Origin: a virus
Virus record (IMG/VR): IMGVR_UViG_3300036668_000173
Location: 23,313-87,312 of that record
DNA: 64,000 nt
Reading direction: 5' to 3' (one strand)
A program made the translations under genes and the position numbers. Position 1 is the stretch's first letter; each line of letters opens with the position of its first letter. The notes under the pieces are model-generated. The model was given only the letters and a program-made list of their open reading frames with translations. It was not told the DNA's origin and did no database searches. Shown here piece by piece: positions 16,423 to 45,896 of the stretch.

Positions 16423-16635
16423 ATGTTATCATTCAAAGAATACGAAGAAATATTACAAGAGGCTTCATATGCTGGAAATATCGGCATCATGGAGTTGGTA
16501 AAATTTTATAAACAGGCAGACCCTAAGACTATTGCTAAGGTTAAAGATCTCATCGCATCAAAGAAGAACAAAGAGGCGTGGGACATAATCCAAAAAGTGA
16601 CTGGGGTAACTCTTCACAAGTCTGCTTTTGCATAG
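16423..16635 (+). CDS. Small late protein with a capsid-targeting-like N-terminus
   Basis: MLSFKEYEEILQE; TATAAATA at 16410-16417, 5 nt before the ATG. Confidence 0.7.
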   Translation: MLSFKEYEEILQEASYAGNIGIMELVKFYKQADPKTIAKVKDLIASKKNKEAWDIIQKVTGVTLHKSAFA

Positions 16636-23189: not shown

Positions 23190-24501
23190 AACCTTCACCC
23201 GAAGAGTTATTCCGTTTTTGAATCGTGAATACTTTGATTCGTCATACGGAGAAGTATTTAAAGAGGTTGTTAAGTTTGTAGACAAGTACAATAAACTACC
23301 TACACCCGAATCATTAACAGTAGAGCTTTCGGAGTCTGCTTCAAATGAAGTAATGAGTTTGGTTAAATTAATATCTCAGCCACAAGAGGTTGCCTGTGAT
23401 ACCGAATGGTTGATTGACTCCACAGAAAAGTGGTGTCAAGACAAGGCGATTTATTTAGCCATCATGGAATCTATCTCTATCATTGATGGAACACACAAGA
23501 CTTTAGCCAAGACCGCTTTACCAGATCTTCTGAGCAATGCTCTTGGCGTTTCCTTTGATTCAAATATCGGACATGACTACATTAAGGACTCGAGCGCTCG
23601 GTATGACTACTATCACCGAACCGAGTCGAGAGTTCCATTTGATCTAGATTACTTCAATAAAATTACAAAGGGTGGTTTGCCTAACAAGACATTGAATATT
23701 ATATTAGCGTCGACAGGCGTAGGTAAGAGTTTGTTCATGACCCATACATCTGCTTCGGCTCTTATGGATGGTCGAAACGTTTTGTACCTTACCATGGAAA
23801 TGTCCGAAGAGAAAATTGCCGAACGCATTGACGCAAACCTTATGAACGTGCCACTAGATTCGTTAGAGGGCATGACACGTGACACCTTCAAAACCAAGAT
23901 TGATAAAATTGCTCAGAGAAATATCGGTAAGCTAATCATCAAAGAGTACCCTACAGGATCTGCTCATGTAGGACACTTTCGGGCATTGCTCAATGAACTC
24001 AAGATGAAGAAAAAGTTTGTGCCCCATATAATCATGATCGACTATTTAAATATTTGCTCGTCTTCAAGGATGAAGGGCATGGGTGGTGCCATTAATTCAT
24101 ATGCATACATCAAATCAATCTCAGAAGAAATACGAGGGCTTGCAGTAGAGTTTGATGTCCCTATCCTTACCGCGACCCAATCCAATCGAGACGGTTTGTC
24201 TAATACTGATGTCGATCTGAGCAATACCAGCGATAGTTTTGGAACCCCTATGTCAGCAGATTTAATGTTTGCTCTCATTTCAACCGAAGAGCTAGAAGGT
24301 ATGGGTCAAATCATGGTCAAGCAATTAAAGAATCGATACAATGACCTATCAAAGCATAAGCGTTTCGTGATCGGTGTGGATCGTGCCAAGATGAAACTGT
24401 ATGACGTAGAGACTTCTGCTCAAACTCTTGTACAAGATACACCGAGTTATGATAACTCCCCGAAGTCCTCAAACGATAAATTTTCAGGATTCAAAGTATG
24501 A
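23107..24501 (+). CDS. gp41: Replicative DnaB-like helicase gp41
   Basis: ASTGVGKS, TMEMSEEKIAERIDA, IDYLNIC and KQLKNRY. Confidence 0.96.
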   Translation: MEHETTNQQAQHATQLQELILKNLITNETFTRRVIPFLNREYFDSSYGEVFKEVVKFVDKYNKLPTPESLTVELSESASNEVMSLVKLISQPQEVACDTEWLIDSTEKWCQDKAIYLAIMESISIIDGTHKTLAKTALPDLLSNALGVSFDSNIGHDYIKDSSARYDYYHRTESRVPFDLDYFNKITKGGLPNKTLNIILASTGVGKSLFMTHTSASALMDGRNVLYLTMEMSEEKIAERIDANLMNVPLDSLEGMTRDTFKTKIDKIAQRNIGKLIIKEYPTGSAHVGHFRALLNELKMKKKFVPHIIMIDYLNICSSSRMKGMGGAINSYAYIKSISEEIRGLAVEFDVPILTATQSNRDGLSNTDVDLSNTSDSFGTPMSADLMFALISTEELEGMGQIMVKQLKNRYNDLSKHKRFVIGVDRAKMKLYDVETSAQTLVQDTPSYDNSPKSSNDKFSGFKV

Positions 24502-24884
24502 ACAAGACCTATACTCGAACTATAAGTAAGGATGGTAGCATCTCTTTGCCTAAAAAGGTAGTCAAGCTATTAAGAGTAAAACCTAATGATCAAATTAAGT
24601 TTGTGGATAACATGGATGGTAGTCTTATGCTTATGAGTGATTTTTTGATGGAAGATGGATATGTAGAAATATCTAAATTGGAAAGTGGGGACATGAAAAG
24701 ATATGCAAGACTCTATATTTGCAAATCAAAAGATCACTATATTGTAGATATGTACGAAAATAGTAGGCTAACATATTCTAGAAAGATTTCTGGTACGCAC
24801 ACTCAAAACTATGTAGAAGACTGTGCTGAAAATTGGATTTTAAAATGTGGAGAATTTAAAAATGAAAGTAATGATACAAAATAA
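24498..24884 (+). CDS. AbrB-like N-terminal domain fused to a conserved hypothetical domain
   Basis: ISKDGSISLPKKVVKLLRVKPNDQIKF swapped-hairpin pattern; C-terminal VEDCAENW. Confidence 0.55.
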   Translation: MNKTYTRTISKDGSISLPKKVVKLLRVKPNDQIKFVDNMDGSLMLMSDFLMEDGYVEISKLESGDMKRYARLYICKSKDHYIVDMYENSRLTYSRKISGTHTQNYVEDCAENWILKCGEFKNESNDTK

Positions 24885-25709: not shown

Positions 25710-25728
25710 GGACAAACGCCCGTTGTTC

Positions 25729-25772
25729 ATCTACACACAAGGTATAAAAAATAGTATACCTTGTGTGTAGAT
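25729..25772. repeat. Perfect 18-bp inverted repeat with an 8-nt loop
   Basis: ATCTACACACAAGGTATA / TATACCTTGTGTGTAGAT; no U tract on either strand. Confidence 0.9.
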
Positions 25773-25817
25773 TCGTGTACAATTAACGTATAGATAACCA
25801 AACATATAAATATACAC

Positions 25818-26831
25818 ATGAAAACCTTTAAATCCTTCCTAGCCGAGCAAGTCAAAATTTCTACCAGAGAACAGGTAGAATCAATCATTGCTTCGTATAA
25901 AAACGCCAGCGAGATATTGAATCCTGACTATCAGAATTTAGCTCAGAGAGCAAATAACATATTGTCAAGATATTCGGAATTGGCTAAAAAACCTGTATGG
26001 GATTATTTCAGAGATCTACGTCAATATGACGAGGTCACTGATTTAGACTATGGATGGGGTATTGGTTTATCTTTAAATGGTTTGTCGACCTTCGAGAAAA
26101 AATTAGATAAAATTAAAAAGACGAAATACCCAGCCGAAGTAAGTGGCGTTGTAAAAAAAATTGTTTCTGTTGCCGATAATATCTTGAGCGATTGGAAACA
26201 AATCTCTATTGACATGAAAGCCTTAAAGCTCAAAGTCGTAAAGGTTACTGTAAAGCGTCAACAAGAAAAAGAAGTCAAGACAGAAATACTTAAAGGTAAG
26301 TTTCGTGATTCTTCTTCCTTGATAAAAGTACTCGAGAGTCATTTAGAAGAGTATAAGGAAAGGGCTAGAACAGAGTCTACGAAATTTGTTAAATCTAAGC
26401 TCGATGCGCTGGCCGCAAAAAATTGGGATTTAAGTGTCGTGGCACCTCGACCAAATAGTAATAATTCGAGAGAAGAATATATGAGAGCAATTGCTCGTAG
26501 ATCTATCTATGAGTTATTGACTGATTCAAAAGATAAAACGCCACGATCCACATCAGATGTTCGTGTAGTTCGCGAATTGGGTGTTGCTAAATATATCAAA
26601 GATAGCGTAGACGGAGCCGAGCAAAGCTATCGGGAGTTTATGCAAAAGATGATCGAGAAAATTGGCAAGCCAGTTGTAACTGCGAAGTTTTTGGGTAACA
26701 TCTGGACAGGTTCAGTTCTTGATGTCGTAACAAACGATGGCGAAAGTCAGCGCTGGAACACTAAGATGATCATTAACTTTTCAAAGTATCAGAAGATGTT
26801 TAATCAGTTTCCTACAACCAGAAAAAAATAA
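25818..26831 (+). CDS. Putative internal virion protein with a capsid-targeting sequence
   Basis: MKTFKSFLAE resembles T4 IPII/IPIII MKTYQEFIAE; TATAAATA at 25805-25812. Confidence 0.7.
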   Translation: MKTFKSFLAEQVKISTREQVESIIASYKNASEILNPDYQNLAQRANNILSRYSELAKKPVWDYFRDLRQYDEVTDLDYGWGIGLSLNGLSTFEKKLDKIKKTKYPAEVSGVVKKIVSVADNILSDWKQISIDMKALKLKVVKVTVKRQQEKEVKTEILKGKFRDSSSLIKVLESHLEEYKERARTESTKFVKSKLDALAAKNWDLSVVAPRPNSNNSREEYMRAIARRSIYELLTDSKDKTPRSTSDVRVVRELGVAKYIKDSVDGAEQSYREFMQKMIEKIGKPVVTAKFLGNIWTGSVLDVVTNDGESQRWNTKMIINFSKYQKMFNQFPTTRKK

Positions 26832-26849
26832 TAAAATAAGGGTTTTAAC

Positions 26850-27581
26850 ATGTTAGATATAATTTCGTTTTCTTCTTTTGTGGCATTGCAGGAGGGTGTA
26901 GTAAACCCTGCAATGCTTGGCGATAAAGATATACAAAAATTAGATAAAATGTTAAAGAACCCTAGGGCAAGTGAAATAGAAAAAAGAGACTCCTTGGCTA
27001 GTATACATGCCAAATATTTGCCCCTGATTACAAGTGTGATGAATAAGTTCCAATCTCAGGTCAAACGAGAAATGGGAAACCTACCAAAGGTAAAGTTTTT
27101 AGCAGGAACCAAGCCCTTCGAGTCTCTTATATCTAAAGTGATTTCCCGAGGAAAGAAAATATCAGAGATAAACGACCTAGTTCGTGGGGCAGTTCTATTT
27201 GACACCAAGGAACAAGCAGACGCCTTTGTTAAGAATTTCACTAGGAGAAACTCCTCTAATGTGGTAGAATATGAAGTGAAGGATAAGGGTTCAGACACTA
27301 CGTATGGTTATTTTGGTTCTCACCATATAGGGCTCAATATTGATGGTATAATTGTTGAGCTACAAGTGATGACCCGAAAGCTTTGGAATTACAAAGGCTC
27401 GGCACACGTTATTTACAACAATACCCGAGAAAAAAAGGGAGGCCCTAATAAGTTTGACATTTCTCAGTCTAAGAAAATCTTTGCTTTAGGGAATCGTCCC
27501 GGCTATGTAAAAGATGATTGGGATTTAAGTGAGCTAGAAGTTATTCTGGAAACTAACGATGAAGCACCGTTTCGATATTGA
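26850..27581 (+). CDS. RelA/SpoT-family small alarmone synthetase-like nucleotidyltransferase
   Basis: KPFESLISK, INDLVRG, GYFGSHH, ELQVMT and AHVIY match Syn1-Syn5-like motifs. Confidence 0.75.
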   Translation: MLDIISFSSFVALQEGVVNPAMLGDKDIQKLDKMLKNPRASEIEKRDSLASIHAKYLPLITSVMNKFQSQVKREMGNLPKVKFLAGTKPFESLISKVISRGKKISEINDLVRGAVLFDTKEQADAFVKNFTRRNSSNVVEYEVKDKGSDTTYGYFGSHHIGLNIDGIIVELQVMTRKLWNYKGSAHVIYNNTREKKGGPNKFDISQSKKIFALGNRPGYVKDDWDLSELEVILETNDEAPFRY

Positions 27582-27942
27582 TAAATTAAGTTATGTTGCC
27601 GAATTTGTCGGTGATCATGAGTTCATATTTTATGTAGATGTGGTTGAGTCAAAAATAAACCCCTATGTTATGTCTAAGGAGTGTTTAAGTTTTGGAGATG
27701 TGTCTCCCTTAAAGATTTTTAGTAAGATTGACTCTAAGGATGTCTTTAAGATTAAAAGTCACTTGGCTAAATTTATAGATAGCGTCTTAAGTCGATATGA
27801 TCCTTATTACTTCTTCTATCGAGCAAACGAGGATCATAAGCGCTCGGTGTACTACAAATTCGGTCTTTACATTGCAAAAAAATACGGCTATAATATGTAT
27901 GTAGATGACGTATTGGGTAAATTTAGTTTTTATAAGAGTTAA
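27559..27942 (+). CDS. Hypothetical protein
   Basis: 127-aa ORF overlapping the synthetase stop. Confidence 0.55.
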   Translation: MKHRFDIDKLSYVAEFVGDHEFIFYVDVVESKINPYVMSKECLSFGDVSPLKIFSKIDSKDVFKIKSHLAKFIDSVLSRYDPYYFFYRANEDHKRSVYYKFGLYIAKKYGYNMYVDDVLGKFSFYKS

Positions 27943-27944
27943 AT

Positions 27945-28388
27945 ATGAATGTTCATGTGACTGGTGGGAACAAACTTCAAAAAGAAATTGCTCGTCAATT
28001 ATGCGAATTCTTCAAGGCTAAGTACCTCAGTAAGTTCAAAACAATACGGATAGACATTTCTATTGAAAAAAATCTAGCCGAAGATTGTGGCTGTGATGGA
28101 GCTTGTACGCCCATTGGTGGAAATCGTGGTCGAGAGTTTGAAATAGAAATTGATCGTGATTTGTCTTTGATTCAGTTTATGAAAACATTAACGCATGAGC
28201 TTACTCATGTTCGTCAATATGTGACAGGCGATATGGTAGAGGTCAAAGGTAAAGAGCCGAAGACGTTATGGAAAGGAAAGGACTACTCTAAGGTTTCGTA
28301 TTCAAAGCAACCATGGGAGCGTCAGGCGTTTCGACTTCAAGAAAGTTTGTACCTAGAATTTTTAGCGAGTACTCCGTCAATCAAATAA
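27945..28388 (+). CDS. Putative zincin metallopeptidase (HExxH)
   Basis: TLTHELTHVRQY and QPWERQA. Confidence 0.75.
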   Translation: MNVHVTGGNKLQKEIARQLCEFFKAKYLSKFKTIRIDISIEKNLAEDCGCDGACTPIGGNRGREFEIEIDRDLSLIQFMKTLTHELTHVRQYVTGDMVEVKGKEPKTLWKGKDYSKVSYSKQPWERQAFRLQESLYLEFLASTPSIK

Positions 28389-28451
28389 AATTTCACTAAG
28401 AGACTAAGGTCAAAAGTGATAACTTTGTTTTTATAAGGAATAATTTTTGTT

Positions 28452-28931
28452 ATGAATATACCCCACCTTGAGAACGTCGCCAAAGAAATAGCGAAGTCTC
28501 GTCATTCTGGAATGGTTGACTTGTTAGGCGTAGACTATTTCTCTGGTCATCTAACATCAGTTGCCAATGGCGTTTTAGGTGACTCAATTCTTGTGGCAAT
28601 CGCATATCTTCACGATGTAATAGAAGACACTGATATTTCACCCGCCAACCTCTCTAATGTATTAATAGCCTCATCCGATAATATGTATGACGCATCTATC
28701 GTCAAGGATGTTGTCGATGCTGTCGTGGCTATGTCTAAGGTTTCAGGTGAGACCTATAACGAATACTTAGCGCGTGTCGCCTCTAATCCTTTATCAGTAA
28801 AAGTTAAGATAGCAGATATTATGAATAACATGGACGAATCACGTGGAATTATTTCTGATCACAAATTCGTTAGCAGAAGAGTTAAGTACTCGGACGCATT
28901 AGTCTATCTACGTGGAATCGACTCGCAATAG
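28452..28931 (+). CDS. HD-domain (p)ppNpp hydrolase, SpoT/Mesh1 small alarmone hydrolase-like
   Basis: A...H.G..D..G..Y..H, LHDVIEDT and VKIADIMNN. Confidence 0.8.
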   Translation: MNIPHLENVAKEIAKSRHSGMVDLLGVDYFSGHLTSVANGVLGDSILVAIAYLHDVIEDTDISPANLSNVLIASSDNMYDASIVKDVVDAVVAMSKVSGETYNEYLARVASNPLSVKVKIADIMNNMDESRGIISDHKFVSRRVKYSDALVYLRGIDSQ

Positions 28932-28940
28932 GATTTAAAT

Positions 28941-29510
28941 ATGTTATTAAAACTGAGAATTTTATATAATTTATCTTTCATGTTGGTCTTGTTTGTGTTT
29001 TTATCGGTGGCAACTTACTCTATGATAAGACCAACTCCTCCTCAGGTTTTCAATGTTTCTAGTATTCAAACCTTTGATGCCCTTCCCTTGGTCACTGAAG
29101 TTATATACTATAAAAGGGATCCAATAAAAATCACAAAAAAAGACCTTGATTGCCTCGAAAAGAACATATACTACGAGGCAGGTGTAGAGAATAGAAATGG
29201 TAAGATCGCAGTTGCTCAGGTGACCTATAATCGCCTAAAGTCTGGGAAATGGGGGGACACCTTTTGTAAGGTGATATATGCGCCACATCAATTTTCTTGG
29301 ACTAAACAGCGTAAAAAGGAAAAGCCCAAAGGTGCGTTATGGGAAGAAAGTAAATCAGTCGCGAAAGAGTTCGTGAACGGAATCCGTATACAATCCCTTA
29401 AAAACTCCATACACTATCATGCCACATGGATAGATGAGCCTCACTGGGCAGATGAAGAAAGAATAGTTAAGACCATTGGTCAACACGTCTTTTACAGTCA
29501 AATACGTTAG
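28941..29510 (+). CDS. SleB-like cell wall hydrolase (Hydrolase_2) with an N-terminal TM anchor
   Basis: CLEKNIYYEA, AVAQVTYNR, QFSW, HYHA and IGQHVFY. Confidence 0.9.
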   Translation: MLLKLRILYNLSFMLVLFVFLSVATYSMIRPTPPQVFNVSSIQTFDALPLVTEVIYYKRDPIKITKKDLDCLEKNIYYEAGVENRNGKIAVAQVTYNRLKSGKWGDTFCKVIYAPHQFSWTKQRKKEKPKGALWEESKSVAKEFVNGIRIQSLKNSIHYHATWIDEPHWADEERIVKTIGQHVFYSQIR

Positions 29511-29636
29511 TACTAGTCGAAATAAATACTACTCAAAAGTTTATTTTATATAAATATAAGTAATTGAATATAAACTTGTAACAGGCCGAGGCATATAAAT
29601 TTTCGCCTCACTCCTAATGGGAAAGTATAAACTAGT

Positions 29637-30020
29637 ATGAAAACATTTAAAGAATTTTCGTTGGACGAACAACTATCAACCCAATCAAGGTTGAAGAAAA
29701 AGCAGTCGTTACGAAGAAATAAAGCTAAAATAAAACTAGGAAAACTAAGAGCATCAAGGAAGCTTGCATCTCAGGACGTGATCGCAAAACGCGCCAGACG
29801 TGCCGCGAGAGCCTTTATGTTCAAGAGACTAGTAAAAGGTAAAACAAAAAACGAGTTGCCTTACTCATCACGTCAGACATATGAGAAAATCATAGATCGT
29901 CGCAAGGGCGCCGTAGATAAATTAGCAAAACGCCTTATCCCTAAAATTAGAAAAGCCGAGATGCAACGTAAGTTAAATCGTCGTCAGGCTCAAAGTGGGA
30001 GCGTCGCCAAAAATGATTAA
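29637..30020 (+). CDS. Highly basic late protein with a capsid-targeting sequence
   Basis: MKTFKEF matches the T4 IPI start; Lys/Arg rich; TATAAATA at 29549-29556. Confidence 0.75.
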   Translation: MKTFKEFSLDEQLSTQSRLKKKQSLRRNKAKIKLGKLRASRKLASQDVIAKRARRAARAFMFKRLVKGKTKNELPYSSRQTYEKIIDRRKGAVDKLAKRLIPKIRKAEMQRKLNRRQAQSGSVAKND

Positions 30021-31212
30021 ATCCTTTTCGGACTACCTACAAGAATCATCACGTGAAATTACGATCGTGCGTGGCGCATTTAATCCACCCATAGAAGATC
30101 ATGAAAAACTTTTCGAAGCCGCCTCTAAGCTATCGGGTGGTGGAAAGTATCGCATACATGCAACAAAACTATCAGGAACCCCTAAGGCTCCTTTGGTGTA
30201 TGAAAATAAAATAAAGTACATGAGGAAAATGTTCCCACGACATGCCAGAGCTATCGTGTTAGATTCGCATACCTCGGTTCAATCCATTCTGTCTGATTTG
30301 TATAGTGAAGGTTATACGAAAGTTAACATTGTCACAGAGTCAAAAGATTCTAGGTCATACGAAGCGATGATCTCTAATTCAAATAGAAAAGAGACAAGAC
30401 ACGGGTTCTATAGTTTTTTACCTTCGGACATTCAGATCGTTTCTGTTCAGATGAACGAATCAAAAATTAAAAATATAACCGAATCTGTTGAGACCGAAAG
30501 CTTTCAAGATTTCTGTTCACTTCTACCTTCAACATTCAAAGAATCAAAAGACCTATACAATGACGTTCGTGTAGGCATGGGACTTTTACCCATGAAAGAT
30601 TTTAGAACTCACCTACGACTAGAAACTGTTTCGGATGTACGCGAATCGTATATCATGGGAAATTTATTTAATATCGGTGATGAAGTGGTGATCAAAGAGT
30701 CTAATAAAATCGGTAAGGTTGCGCTCTTAGGATCAAATTATGTTTTGATCGAAATGTCAGACGGTTCTAAGGTTCGTAAGTGGTTGGAGTCCATAGAACG
30801 AGTCGGAGAGTATGACGAATACGAAGAGATCAACGAGGCTTGGTTTAAAGATCTTTTAGATAAAGTGTCTAAGGTCACCAACCGTGGTGGGTATCGAGAA
30901 GCATCAAAAATTCTAAAGATGGTTGTTGACAAAAAGAAAAAAGATGGAACTTTAAAACATCCGACTGGTTATTATGCAATGAGAATTGCAAAACAGTTCA
31001 AGGGTAACATAAACCCACAAGAATTGTTAAAGATGATCAGCGAAGAAGAAGAGCGTCCTGTGGGAACTACAGGAGTATTGAAAACTGCAGACTACAAAAT
31101 TTCACCTACTACGGGTCGAAAGGTTCGCGCACACACCATCAATTTGAATAGAAAAGTAATTAAACCATCGACGAAGATAGAATCATTTTCTTCGTTCAAC
31201 ACAAAACAATAA
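30013..31212 (+). CDS. Cytidyltransferase-like (HIGH-superfamily) protein of T4-like phages
   Basis: GAFNPPIEDHEKL degenerate HIGH motif, PL.YE.KIKYMRKMFP and IGDEV; N-terminal MIKSFSDYLQE. Confidence 0.7.
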   Translation: MIKSFSDYLQESSREITIVRGAFNPPIEDHEKLFEAASKLSGGGKYRIHATKLSGTPKAPLVYENKIKYMRKMFPRHARAIVLDSHTSVQSILSDLYSEGYTKVNIVTESKDSRSYEAMISNSNRKETRHGFYSFLPSDIQIVSVQMNESKIKNITESVETESFQDFCSLLPSTFKESKDLYNDVRVGMGLLPMKDFRTHLRLETVSDVRESYIMGNLFNIGDEVVIKESNKIGKVALLGSNYVLIEMSDGSKVRKWLESIERVGEYDEYEEINEAWFKDLLDKVSKVTNRGGYREASKILKMVVDKKKKDGTLKHPTGYYAMRIAKQFKGNINPQELLKMISEEEERPVGTTGVLKTADYKISPTTGRKVRAHTINLNRKVIKPSTKIESFSSFNTKQ

Positions 31213-31230: not shown

Positions 31231-32196
31231 ATGGACTTTTTCAAACTTAGAAACGAAGAACTCGGAAAGCATAACGAGGTCGGTACTCCAGAGGTGGTGG
31301 CAAAATTTAAGCGTGGTACCCCAGGGCAACTCTCTTCTCCCCCTGCTCGTCAACCCGCGCGTCGTGGTGACAAGCTCAATACAAAAATGGGTAACTATAC
31401 TAAAATTACACAAAAAGAAATTGGCGTAAAGAATAGTTTCTCTGAAGAGAAGAAGGATCCTTGTTGGAAAGGCTACAAGGCAATTGGCATGAAGAAGAAG
31501 GGTGGTAAGTCTGTTCCTAACTGTGTTCCTGTCAAAGAGTATGTCGACGCAGATCTGAGTGAATCTATCATTCAAGAAATGCAGGGTGCCAACATGGATA
31601 CTCGACAAGTTCATTCGCATTTAAAAAAGGGTGGCTGGTCTCTTACTCGAACTAGTGGTGGACATGACGTTTTTACACACCCAGATTCTGAGAATCATAT
31701 TTCGGTGCCCCGTCACAAGCAACTAAAGGCTCCTTTGATTTTAGGAATTTTAAAGACAGCAAAAACCGCCAAACCGTCTAAGCCCACCAAACCCATTGAA
31801 GAGGCTAAAAAGGCGCCTAGTTATAATTTATACCATAAAGATTTTTCGGGCGCCATGCAACATGCATATGATCATGCAAAAACAAAGTACGGCATAACAA
31901 TTCATCCAGATGAGATTGATAACAAAGTTGCCATAGGCCCAAAAAAACCATCAAGTGGAAAAACAAATTCATATAGATTAAAGGGCGACAAGGGGACTAT
32001 ACAAGTTCAGGTGGCAAACCTCGATAATAAAAGATATGAACTAAACATGTACAAAGAATCATTGGACAAGAAAGCGAATGTCGGAGATTATGTTTCGGAC
32101 TTCAAAAAATCAGATGCTCCACAGTTCAAGGGAAAGACTAAGAAAGAACGTCAGAAAATGGCAGTCGCGGCATTTTACTCTTCTAAGAAAGGGTAA
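31231..32196 (+). CDS. Modular virion-associated protein containing a HicA-like RNase domain
   Basis: LKKGGWSLTRTSGGHDVFTHP..HISVPRH..L...LILGILKTA; also CWKGY..VPNCV and DFKKSDAPQFKGK modules. Confidence 0.7.
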   Translation: MDFFKLRNEELGKHNEVGTPEVVAKFKRGTPGQLSSPPARQPARRGDKLNTKMGNYTKITQKEIGVKNSFSEEKKDPCWKGYKAIGMKKKGGKSVPNCVPVKEYVDADLSESIIQEMQGANMDTRQVHSHLKKGGWSLTRTSGGHDVFTHPDSENHISVPRHKQLKAPLILGILKTAKTAKPSKPTKPIEEAKKAPSYNLYHKDFSGAMQHAYDHAKTKYGITIHPDEIDNKVAIGPKKPSSGKTNSYRLKGDKGTIQVQVANLDNKRYELNMYKESLDKKANVGDYVSDFKKSDAPQFKGKTKKERQKMAVAAFYSSKKG

Positions 32197-44636: not shown

Positions 44637-45005
44637 CTTAACATAAAATATCATGGCAAAATTCAAACGATTCGACCCACAAAACAAAAAAGCGCGTCAA
44701 GACAAATACTTTGGTGCATCCAAGGAAAAGAAGTCAGACAAGCTAACACATCATGCAATGACTGAAATTAAACGTCGACAACAAGAGGTCAACGAAAGCC
44801 TCTTGACTTTTAATTGATGACAGAGGCAAGTCAAAAATATCTGTGTGATAGAAATTTAGAGGTGTGTTGCGAATCTGCATGCACCAAAGAACACATAGTA
44901 TCTTACATAAAATACTTAGAAGATGAGGTCAAAAGTCTCAGAGAACTTCTGGGAGATCGTAATTGATATAAATAGAATAAAGTATATTCTAAAGGAACTA
45001 ACAAG

Positions 45006-45896
45006 ATGTTATCATTTTCCGATTACCTAATGACCGAAGAGAAAATTCCTCTTCGAGAAGATTATTTGTCTGAGCAACACGACATACTCCTAGAGAAACT
45101 AATTACTCTAGGTGGAAAGGCATACCCGAAGTACGGTAACATCGTCATCATGGCGGGTGGCGCAGGGTCGGGTAAGGGGTTCGTTAAGAACAAATTACTA
45201 GGTATGGAAGGATACAGTTTTGACGTAGACGAATTGAAAAAGTTGGCGGTGGCAACCCCAATGATTCAACAAAAAATTGCCAAAGAGTTAGGCGTCGATA
45301 TTAAGGCTTTGGGCGCAAACATGAGAGACTCTAAAAATGTTGCAAAGCTACACGAAATCATCAACGACTACCTAAAGTTAGATGAAAAACGTTTGGCAAC
45401 ACTTTACACCTCTATCCTTACTGCACCCGAGGATCGTAAACCAAATATAATTTTTGATGTAACCCTTAAGAGTTTTTCTAAACTAATGTCGATCACTCGT
45501 CAGGTAAAGAACTTAGGATATGATAATAAAAACATTCATATCGTATGGGTAGTTAATGATGTCGAGGTTGCTATGTCTCAAAATAAAAATCGGGATCGTT
45601 TAGTGGCTACGGACATCTTTATTACCACACATGAGGGCGCAAGTCAAACAATGAACTATATTGTTAGTCTAGGTAAAAAACTGACCGAGTACATGGATGG
45701 TGATATTGTCTTTGCCTTCAACAAAGCAAAGGTCGATTCTACTATTGCCAAGTCAGATTCTGGTGGCATGTATGTCAAGGATGCAAATTTCTTTTATGTC
45801 AAAAAGTCTGGACAACAAGTCATGAGCCCGTCGAACATTTCAAAAGACCTAATCGCAAAAATTAAATCTTATGTACCCAAAACAAGAACTTGGTAA
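45006..45896 (+). CDS. P-loop kinase (zeta-toxin/AAA_33-like) with a capsid-targeting-like N-terminus
   Basis: MAGGAGSGKG, FDVD, IIFDVT and NKNRDR lid; MLSFSDYLMTEE; TATAAATA at 44967-44974. Confidence 0.7.
   Translation: MLSFSDYLMTEEKIPLREDYLSEQHDILLEKLITLGGKAYPKYGNIVIMAGGAGSGKGFVKNKLLGMEGYSFDVDELKKLAVATPMIQQKIAKELGVDIKALGANMRDSKNVAKLHEIINDYLKLDEKRLATLYTSILTAPEDRKPNIIFDVTLKSFSKLMSITRQVKNLGYDNKNIHIVWVVNDVEVAMSQNKNRDRLVATDIFITTHEGASQTMNYIVSLGKKLTEYMDGDIVFAFNKAKVDSTIAKSDSGGMYVKDANFFYVKKSGQQVMSPSNISKDLIAKIKSYVPKTRTW

Follow-up and report, generated by a model that had tools for sequence, protein, structure and literature searches.

Here we report the analysis of a cluster of four consecutive plus-strand open reading frames (ORFs) in viral DNA of IMG/VR record IMGVR_UViG_3300036668_000173, in which a RelA/SpoT homolog (RSH)-type synthetase gene, ORF 26850, is followed by a small partner gene (ORF 27559), a gene with an HExxH motif (ORF 27945) and an HD-domain hydrolase gene (ORF 28452). 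By the window we mean the whole stretch of 64,000 nucleotides that was analysed (positions 23,313 to 87,312 of the record); the record itself holds 87,312 bases, at an estimated completeness of 48%. The large ORFs of the window all lie on the plus strand, and the source is a T4-like lytic phage, present as an 87-kb fragment, with a gene content of that type: a DnaB/gp41-type helicase and ThyX are encoded within the window and a gp21-type prohead protease outside it. A megablast search with positions 26000-30000 against phage records returned no match.

A first-pass annotation of this DNA had described the cluster as a phage alarmone module, with a tagged synthetase delivered by the virion and an untagged hydrolase two genes downstream, and as a whole that interpretation is partly supported by our in silico results. 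The four ORFs were confirmed at the positions given here, with the partner ORF overlapping the synthetase ORF by 23 nt.

26850..27581, plus strand: synthetase-fold enzyme, RelA/SpoT homolog, 243 aa; candidate adenosine 3'-pyrophosphokinase ((p)ppApp synthetase)
26850..26894, plus strand: putative propeptide resembling a capsid targeting sequence (CTS), synthetase codons 1-15 (F7, F10, L13-Q-E15); predicted cleavage after E15 by a gp21-type protease
27559..27942, plus strand: untagged partner, 127 aa, distant DUF6934-like alpha/beta fold; candidate protein inhibitor (immunity)
27945..28388, plus strand: HExxH ORF (HELTH), 147 aa, phrog_10499; inside the module here, not a conserved member
28452..28931, plus strand: Aph1-type small alarmone hydrolase, HD domain, untagged, 159 aa; candidate (p)ppApp hydrolase

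Synthetase, hydrolase and likely product

The motifs from which the first-pass annotation had recognized the two enzymes are present in ORF 26850 (G86-T-K88, K88..S92..S95-K96, D109-L-V-R-G, G153-Y-x-G-S-H158, E170-L-Q..T175 and H186-x-I-Y189) and in ORF 28452 (H54-D..E58-D59 and K119-I-A-D...N126), and they go beyond chance: the synthetase is matched by Pfam, by its family profile and by structure, and the hydrolase by a phmmer search that pairs it with the (p)ppApp hydrolase Aph1 (7smg, E 3.4e-12). The Pfam RelA_SpoT model (PF04607) matches the ORF 26850 protein at E 1.2e-5 and 26.0 bits, just below the 27-bit cut-off, and in a six-frame genome search it scored 27.4 bits for the synthetase; relatives reach 42.8 bits. 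PHROG 37685 (function unknown) matches at 4e-45, and the C-terminal part of PHROG 7625 ('head morphogenesis', 504 positions) gives a weak match (E 2.6e-4). NCBIfam and PADLOC gave no match for the synthetase, the partner or the HExxH ORF; a weak TIGR00691 match to the hydrolase was their sole result.

Relatives of the synthetase numbered 24 in a word-index search and 387 representative clusters at E<=0.001 in an exhaustive profile search, of which 150 match the synthetase profile at E<=1e-30. Two family samples are used throughout: 168 representative proteins for counts of tags and fusions, and an alignment and profile of 107 sequences for residue columns. Compared with solved RSH synthetases, the 107-sequence profile matched Mtb Rel at E 2.8e-7 and the small alarmone synthetase (SAS) 3l9d at 6.7e-7, while its likeness to Tas1 was marginal (E 0.0059). 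An AlphaFold model of the window synthetase (predicted local distance difference test score, pLDDT, 87.2; predicted template modelling score, pTM, 0.80) was aligned by VIA to CapRel 7ztb (Z 15.3, root-mean-square deviation (rmsd) 3.4, 204 residues aligned) and CapRel 9erv (Z 14.4), to SAS1 5ded (Z 14.6, rmsd 3.2, 167 aligned), to RelP (Z 13.6-13.7) and to Tas1 6ox6 (Z 12.8, rmsd 2.9, 163 aligned). Overall these matches span 161-206 residues at rmsd 2.8-3.8, with the CapRel alignments extending over 204-206 residues and including the N-terminal helices. Foldseek returned 51 matches at E<=0.001, and among the matches listed nearly all were RSH enzymes. The profile and structure matches together therefore identify the modelled product of ORF 26850 as an RSH-fold synthetase, and the call of a RelA/SpoT-like enzyme made from motifs alone was correct.

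The active site of this family is conserved in its catalytic parts and rearranged at the donor side. K88, K96, D109, K144, G153, G156, H159, E170, H186 and Y189 are invariant across the 107 sequences, and the residues kept (invariant or nearly so) include D109 of syn2, E170/Q172 of syn4, Y154 of the syn3 G-loop and K88/S92/K96 of the syn1 helix; the invariant active-site residues argue for an active enzyme. Family residues were mapped by HMMER alignments to the list published for FaRel2 (R64, K66, S70, K74, R77, D90, G93, R95, E145, Q147 and Y128; PMC11782079). By this mapping the canonical donor-site arginines (syn1 R-x-K, syn2 G-x-R, syn4 Q-x-R) are not retained. Arg occurs at the syn1 position in 11 of 107 sequences (D 41, G 19, N 16), at the syn2 +5 position in none (Ala 90), and at the syn4 position, where 100 have Met, likewise in none. 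That the syn1 Arg is replaced (GTK) had already been remarked in the first-pass annotation; the replacement is real and family-wide, and with all three canonical arginines rearranged it can now be understood as part of a wider pattern.

A shifted syn2 arginine, R112, stands three positions after the catalytic D109 (D109-L-V-R112-G-A) in 97 of the 107 sequences. Apk2 has been reported to differ from guanosine pyrophosphokinases by 'RYT' versus 'AVR' in syn2, 'GxN' versus 'SxH' in syn3 and 'YH' versus 'IR' in syn4 (PMC12226406). The R112-G-A of the family agrees with the Apk-type syn2 signature, in the register that the three-for-three substitution in that paper implies (PMC12226406). In syn3 (G156-S-H158-H159) the Gly is invariant as in Apk2 and a His takes the place of the Apk2 Asn, and syn4 reads V-M, neither 'YH' nor 'IR'. 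The donor site is thus non-canonical in silico and has an Apk-type syn2 Arg, in line with the earlier suggestion that the substrate may be non-canonical.

The hydrolase can be assigned with more precision than the SAH-type (small alarmone hydrolase) call it had first received. Pfam gave no match for ORF 28452 at E<=0.1, PHROG 990 (metal-dependent phosphohydrolase) matches it at E 2.3e-32, and in the phmmer search Rel hydrolase domains came behind Aph1 at ~3e-6. The window protein shares the HD catalytic residues H33, H54-D55, E58-D59, D122 and N126 with all 15 of the linked or fused relatives that were aligned. In Aph1, specificity for (p)ppApp has been attributed to D24, R96, D116, R119, K133 and Y134, and the double change D24R plus R119A enables cleavage of ppGpp (PMC10083569). 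All six signature residues are found in the window hydrolase (D23, R108, D128, R131, K145 and Y146, by HMMER alignment to 7smg) and in L001, L015, P0081, P0086, P0128 and P0138; three to four of the six are found in L012, L014, P0048 and P0154, and L017 and P0127 have Arg at the first signature position, as in ppGpp hydrolases. Judged by these residues, ORF 28452 is an Aph1-type SAH and a candidate (p)ppApp hydrolase.

Because the hydrolase has the full Aph1 signature and the synthetase an Apk-type syn2 Arg, the likeliest predicted product is (p)ppApp, ahead of ppGpp or a pyrophosphorylated tRNA. That the enzyme makes (p)ppGpp, which would place the host in a stringent-like state with rRNA synthesis and host transcription stopped until the hydrolase resets it, is quite improbable. 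The RSH fold, the kept G-loop Tyr (Y154), an S-x-H-like syn3 with invariant H159, best sequence matches that are (p)ppGpp synthetases (Mtb Rel and SAS 3l9d) and the Arg at the D24 position of the L017 and P0127 hydrolases would all fit such an enzyme. However, the window hydrolase and most of the linked or fused ones have D and R at the positions of Aph1 D24 and R119, which exclude ppGpp in Aph1, and the synthetase lacks the arginines that guanosine pyrophosphokinases have in syn2 and syn4.

We also consider it unlikely that the enzyme is a tRNA 3'-CCA pyrophosphokinase like CapRel, FaRel2 or PhRel2, injected or made to stop host translation, with the HD enzyme removing the pyrophosphate from A76. 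The two CapRel structures are top structural matches, stand-alone phage SAHs also neutralize tRNA-targeting toxic SAS enzymes (toxSAS; PMC7229694), and an adenine-specific hydrolase signature would be compatible with a terminal adenosine. FaRel2, however, retains the donor-site arginines R64 and R95 (PMC11782079), both of which the present family lacks, having the Apk-type shifted Arg instead, and published tRNA-targeting toxSAS are neutralized by pZFD antitoxins that block the donor site, a domain not seen here. The invariant K144, K182, R193 and H186 could form the acceptor phosphate patch of an alarmone synthetase, and the family, with net charges from -7 to +7, is not uniformly basic. As a discriminator between tRNA and nucleotide acceptors, net charge or isoelectric point was uninformative.

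Conservation of the module and its partner gene

Related loci were examined in 25 contigs: 17 viral contigs from a first scan, 7 that were new among the 22 viral contigs of a second, and one contig of a metagenome-assembled genome (MAG) from a scan of 185,579 prokaryote species genomes. Apart from the MAG locus, the patterns of that scan found none in the prokaryote genomes, and the synthetase family is almost phage-only. Homologues in the Sinorhizobium phages phiM12, phiM19 and phiN3 and in Paraglaciecola Antarctic GD virus 1 bear the GenBank label 'RelA/SpoT family protein'. All ORFs of at least 50 aa in the 25 contigs were searched for neighbours by iterative (jackhmmer) and profile searches.

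A relative of the partner directly adjoins the synthetase gene in 18 of the 25 contigs. Three arrangements occur: the partner follows the synthetase gene in the same orientation, follows it convergently so that the two genes overlap by 4 nt at their stop codons, or lies upstream of it. That adjacency is kept despite such rearrangement points to partner and synthetase being a functional pair. In phiM12, a hypothetical 131-aa gene follows the synthetase homologue in the same place as the partner in the related phiN3 locus L005, a correspondence by position only. Relatives of the HD hydrolase lie within the fetched flank in eight contigs (L001, L012, L014, L015, L017 (weak), L028, L041 and L043), and a partner relative, an HD relative or both are present in 21 of 25. 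Among the four contigs lacking both, the sequence stops directly behind the synthetase match in L016 and L038 and 770 bases behind it in L036, so that only L035 is fully flanked. These counts are not fully independent, since L006/L007 and L008/L009 are near-identical pairs. ORF 27559 is thus a more constant companion of the synthetase than the hydrolase, and its place in the module, proposed in the first-pass annotation, is borne out by its adjacency in relatives.

The first-pass annotation had made its reading depend on the co-occurrence of synthetase and hydrolase in relatives, and this was found, both as neighbours in the eight contigs named above and as single chains. HD-synthetase fusions make up 10 of the 168 family representatives, seven with the HD domain first and three with it last, and they fall in at least seven separate places in the leaf order of a midpoint-rooted FastTree tree, which is a statement about leaf order only and carries no support values. 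Where no HD gene is adjacent, an HD relative is found elsewhere in the record in 6 of 10 relatives, and in 5 of 6 when only records at least 90% complete are considered, both figures referring to synthetase-carrying relatives only. Judged by neighbourhood and repeated fusion, synthetase and hydrolase are functionally linked. Of the four-gene stretch as it was first drawn, the synthetase, the partner and the hydrolase hold together as linked genes, and the HExxH ORF 27945 was rejected as a member, jackhmmer having found no relative of it in 17 related loci.

What kind of protein the partner is can be said less firmly. Its model is of good quality (pLDDT 87.4), and in a Foldseek search of the PDB this model had no match at E<=0.001. 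Among 48,161 chains compared by VIA-align, the best score (Z 7.1) was to GNAT acetyltransferases, in their C-terminal halves, and the tool rates such a score as common. Leads from the ESM Atlas were DUF6934-containing and mostly viral clusters (TM 0.74), and Pfam DUF6934 matched 3 of 15 partners weakly (best E 0.004). A Tis1-like fold was tried as an explanation and was unsupported by Foldseek or VIA, with Tis1 absent among the matches listed, which leaves it possible; since there is no clear relative of solved structure, the partner is not demonstrably like Tis1 or IapK. We regard ORF 27559, from its tight linkage, as the best candidate for a protein inhibitor of the synthetase, and its family as a new candidate immunity family, DUF6934-like.

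Several relatives depart from the common layout. In L015 (5959-6647) and L041 (4992-5698) a frameshift or sequencing error has divided the synthetase between two overlapping ORFs, next to an intact partner and hydrolase. In L035 (4430-4873, minus strand) and L036 (4297-4725, minus strand), two relatives without partner and hydrolase, the synthetase has a divergent neighbour with a CTS-like leader, two H-x-T motifs like those of a 2H phosphoesterase and weak Pfam tRNA_lig_CPD matches (E 4e-4 and 8e-3). Long forms of the family (P0041, P0060/61, P0079, P0098, P0100 and P0118 of L012) have DUF3008 or DUF5661 at the N-terminus, or 150-400 residues of no known family; in P0118 (L012, 5515-6549) a tag is followed by ~150 additional residues and then by the synthetase domain.

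Leader peptides, prohead protease and late-promoter motifs

T4 internal proteins have N-terminal CTS leaders of 10-19 residues, in which residues 4 and 7 serve targeting and residues 8 and 10 processing by gp21, and the CTS has been considered a possibly general route for loading various proteins in T4-like phages (PMC9026906). Many members of the synthetase family begin M-K-[ST]-F-x-x-[FY]-[LIV]-x-E, and the 107 sequences share the N-terminal consensus MxxFxxFxxxxLxE, whose Glu (E15) is kept in at least 90%. No MuF or PAAR delivery domain was found in the synthetase by a Pfam scan, and a CTS-like leader of ~15 residues stands there instead. The window leader, MLDIISFSSFVALQE, is followed by Gly and reads F7-x-x-F10-V-A-L13-Q-E15; residues 1-18 are poorly ordered in the model (low pLDDT).

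A loose tag pattern was defined as two aromatic residues spaced aromatic-x-x-aromatic, then [LIVM]-x-E, starting within the first 13 residues. It occurs in 89 of the 168 family members, compared with 1, 1, 5 and 8 at internal offsets of 40, 80, 120 and 160. By gene in the related loci it is found in 12 of 20 synthetase ORFs, in none of 15 partners and in none of six stand-alone hydrolases. The distinction drawn earlier between a tagged synthetase and an untagged hydrolase therefore stands at the level of the family, and is less clean in the window, whose own leader is off register. A gp21-type prohead protease (PF03420) is encoded in the window's record (G000:C1:17307-17756, E 1.2e-40) and in all five relatives' records tested.

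The canonical leader is also present on ORFs 16423, 25818, 29637, 29995 and 45006 of the window. The second of these directly precedes the synthetase gene, ends 18 nt upstream of it and is the first gene of the unit, and two promoter-like sites lie in the region:

25818..26831, plus strand: tagged ORF, 337 aa, N-terminus MKTFKSFLAEQ (canonical CTS-like); phrog_4687 (function unknown), E 9e-26
25805..25812, plus strand: late-promoter-like TATAAATA, 5 nt upstream of the ATG of ORF 25818; candidate unit start, with a putative promoter role
27866..27894, plus strand: sigma-70-like site TTTACA-17-TATAAT (11 of 12), the best in the region; upstream of ORF 27945 and the hydrolase

The octamer TATAAATA, which we take to be the T4 late-promoter consensus, occurs nine times on the plus strand of the window and 11 times on both strands, against 6.3 expected. 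For four of the nine plus-strand sites, a tagged ORF (16423, 25818, 29637 and 45006) starts no more than 100 nt further downstream. Across the related loci, 12 of 20 synthetase starts have ATAAATA in the 60 nt before them, compared with 1.2% of all 60-nt windows there (binomial 1e-18). No plus-strand terminator-like site was found between 24800 and 32390. A long inverted repeat (a terminator-like hairpin) lies at 25720-25775, directly after thyX and before the late-promoter-like motif. At both ORF 16423 (16423-16635, plus strand) and ORF 25818, TATAAATA ends exactly 5 nt before the ATG, a shared spacing that suggests leaderless late messages or a conserved gene-start cassette. Sigma-70-like sites occur at the level of chance (23 found, 22.1 expected), and the site at 27866-27894 is therefore only a lead towards separate (early) expression of the hydrolase.

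These observations bear on whether the synthetase is packaged at all. The N-terminal likeness could mark a gene-start cassette or have another role, and the genes could form an intracellular late toxin-antitoxin (TA)-like or superinfection-exclusion module, a reading we consider improbable. It is consistent with the lack of the tag pattern in about half of the family, with HD-first fusions that are mostly untagged and with the irregular register of the window leader; TA modules are known in which a toxSAS is accompanied by a protein antitoxin and an SAH, as in the FaRel operon, and the phage PhRel/Gp29 has a role in superinfection inhibition (PMC7229694). Set against it, the tag pattern is ~10-90 times commoner at the N-terminus than at the four internal offsets and ends in a gp21-type L/I-x-E, the protease is encoded in all six records checked, the same tag stands on several other enzymes of the window genome behind late-promoter motifs, and the synthetase family is nearly confined to phage contigs, the one MAG locus apart.

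Other tagged genes of the window were noted in the course of this work. ORF 45006 (45006-45896, plus strand, 296 aa) has a canonical leader (MLSFSDYLMTEE) and a TATAAATA site at 44967-44974, and Pfam assigns it a kinase domain of the Zeta_toxin family (E 5.5e-7, 29.7 bits against a cut-off of 22.3); it is a second toxin-type enzyme, putatively loaded into the capsid. ORF 29637 (29637-30020, plus strand) encodes a tagged, very basic protein of 127 aa (MKTFKEFSLDEQ) and shares a unit, with TATAAATA at 29549-29556, with ORF 29995 (29995-31212, plus strand), a 405-aa protein matched by PHROG 395 'cytidyltransferase' (E 2e-34) in which the tag follows an internal Met (MIKSFSDYLQES).

Proposed mechanism and relation to known systems

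In gene clusters of the Apk2-IapK/BcTis1-Aph1 type, the (p)ppApp synthetase is a fusion with MuF, a minor head protein (PMC10083569, PMC12226406). A structural immunity gene was present in all the Apk2 clusters examined and the Aph1 hydrolase was sometimes absent (PMC10083569); IapK/BcTis1 and Aph1 each protect partially, and fully when together (PMC10083569, PMC12226406). Their hosts are temperate phages of Bacteroides caccae, Streptococcus pneumoniae, Mannheimia and Pasteurella (PMC10083569, PMC12226406), and delivery of the MuF-fused synthetases is put forward there as a hypothesis only (PMC10083569). The module in the window resembles these clusters in being a phage RSH-type synthetase with a putative head-associated delivery element, a near-constant small partner and a facultative Aph1-type hydrolase, as well as in the six Aph1 signature residues, the shifted syn2 Arg and the weak match to PHROG 7625. 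It differs in having a CTS-like leader of ~15 residues rather than a MuF domain, in its T4-like lytic rather than temperate phage, in a partner that is DUF6934-like and not detectably Tis1-like, in syn3 and syn4, and in the presence of hydrolase fusions. On our best reading the module is a lytic T4-like, leader-delivered counterpart of MuF-Apk2/IapK/Aph1, in which the partner family and the rearranged donor site are new.

Because this outline is shared with the Apk2-IapK/BcTis1-Aph1 clusters, we propose that ORF 26850 encodes an adenosine 3'-pyrophosphokinase that is made late, loaded by its tag, processed by the prohead protease and ejected. As the best explanation of the whole, a tag-delivered, late-made (p)ppApp-type synthetase with untagged antidotes has in our estimate an even chance (about 0.5) of being right. 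From the folds, motifs, linkage, fusions, tag statistics, protease gene and promoter motifs observed here we infer a chain of events in which packaging, cleavage, the identity of the product, its toxicity, its inhibition and the benefit to the phage are all predicted. The synthetase, a pyrophosphokinase specific to phages, would be expressed late in infection, and its T4-type leader would bring it into the prohead core, where the prohead protease would remove the leader after L-x-E. The mature enzyme would then be ejected with the DNA into the next host and there use ATP to pyrophosphorylate an adenosine nucleotide at its 3'-OH, yielding (p)ppApp. ATP would be drained and purine synthesis blocked, and the enzyme could thereby act as a pre-made host shut-off or anti-defence effector. 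The untagged partner and hydrolase would keep the producing cell safe, or inactivate the enzyme on its arrival in a host. ORF 27559 may act as a stoichiometric protein inhibitor, a role suggested by its tight linkage, and the Aph1-type hydrolase would degrade the product and could, with the partner, end the burst in the newly infected cell.

Several points weigh against this proposal. The top structural match of the synthetase is the tRNA pyrophosphokinase CapRel and not Tas1, in a list where matches 1-2 Z apart are near-tied, and its syn3 and syn4 appear intermediate, neither clearly Apk-type nor RSH-type. The partner is of undefined fold class, not detectably Tis1-like and, in most loci, basic in net charge. 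The window leader is off register, with two extra residues between the aromatic pair and LQE, although the leaders of its two closest relatives are canonical. The tag pattern is limited to about half of the family (89 of 168 members, and 12 of 20 ORFs at related loci) and is missing from six of the seven HD-first fusions; where fusions are tagged (P0138 and P0147) the hydrolase would be delivered too, which misfits an antidote that stays behind. In G006, one of the complete relatives, a search at E<=0.001 found no HD relative. With TATAAATA only 5 nt from the ATG of ORF 25818, either the mRNA is leaderless or the motif is not a promoter there. Lastly, a drain on ATP would harm the phage as well, which makes the benefit uncertain.

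A broader reading, which we offer tentatively and hold to be possible rather than probable, views the CTS leader as the trafficking module of a polymorphic-toxin system, in which a common tag loads interchangeable toxin-type enzymes and the untagged immunity genes remain behind. The loaded set would here consist of the Apk-like synthetase, the Zeta-toxin-like kinase and the nucleotidyltransferase-like protein. A burst of (p)ppApp would precede phage gene expression and shut down host purine and ATP metabolism or starve ATP-dependent defences, and the DUF6934-like immunity family and the Aph1-type hydrolase would terminate it.

Other known systems share individual features with the module proposed here. 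T4 IPI, IPII, IPIII and Alt likewise have a short leader with key residues 4, 7, 8 and 10, a gp21-type protease gene and a leader common to unrelated proteins, and Alt is a precedent for an injected enzyme (PMC9026906). None of the T4 internal proteins is an RSH enzyme, however, the window system is predicted from its genes, and unlike the T4 CTS the window leader has an N-terminal extension of three residues and an insertion of two. The FaRel operon (SAH ATfaRel - FaRel - AT2faRel) similarly guards a (p)ppApp-producing synthetase with a PbcSpo/Aph1-like hydrolase and a protein antitoxin (PMC7229694, PMC11782079), but is a cytoplasmic system of bacteria that lacks a delivery tag and has an antitoxin of the Tis1-like plus pZFD kind. 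Tas1/Apk1-Tis1 (6ox6, Z 12.8) resembles the module as a delivered (p)ppApp synthetase whose immunity protein is kept in the producer, and differs in PAAR and type VI secretion system (T6SS) delivery, Tis1 immunity and the lack of a hydrolase. CapRel and FaRel2 (7ztb, 8pu4) have the toxSYNTH core in common with the synthetase and include its best structural match (Z 15.3), and differ in their canonical donor-site arginines, pZFD antitoxins, role in bacterial anti-phage defence and tRNA acceptor.

Injected phage proteins work before phage genes are read, and few are understood besides T4 Alt and IPI. To our knowledge, (p)ppApp synthetases have so far been described as effectors of type VI secretion, as TA toxins and as MuF fusions in temperate phages. 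HD 'alarmone phosphodiesterases' have been noted in jumbo phages (PMC7824862), and phage SAS and SAH genes have been noted as well (PMC7229694). In the available parts of the literature searched we found no description of a CTS-tagged or virion-packaged alarmone synthetase of T4-like phages. The Sinorhizobium phages are not listed in three supplementary files of PMC7229694, other supplements of which may list them, and RelA/SpoT is not mentioned in the phiM9 paper. If the proposal is true, alarmone warfare extends to lytic phages, by way of a family almost confined to large T4-like phages and a system that pairs a well-studied capsid-loading tag with two kinds of antidote; it suggests that the CTS may work like the trafficking domain of polymorphic toxins. 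The findings also add a candidate immunity family (DUF6934-like) and a synthetase subfamily with all three donor-site arginines rearranged. Because cultured carriers exist (Sinorhizobium phages phiM12, where the synthetase homologue is gp230, and phiN3, and also Desulfovibrio phage 7757) and the T4 CTS is well understood, the system is experimentally tractable.

Some further genes of the window deserve mention. Directly 3' of the hydrolase, ORF 28941-29510 (plus strand) encodes a cell-wall hydrolase (Pfam Hydrolase_2, E 9e-24) with a hydrophobic N-terminal stretch. Two parts of toxin-antitoxin type lie on either side of the module: ORF 24498-24884 (plus strand, 128 aa) has a MazE/AbrB-type antitoxin domain (E 7.6e-6), and ORF 31231-32196 (plus strand, 321 aa) has an internal HicA_toxin domain (E 3.4e-10).

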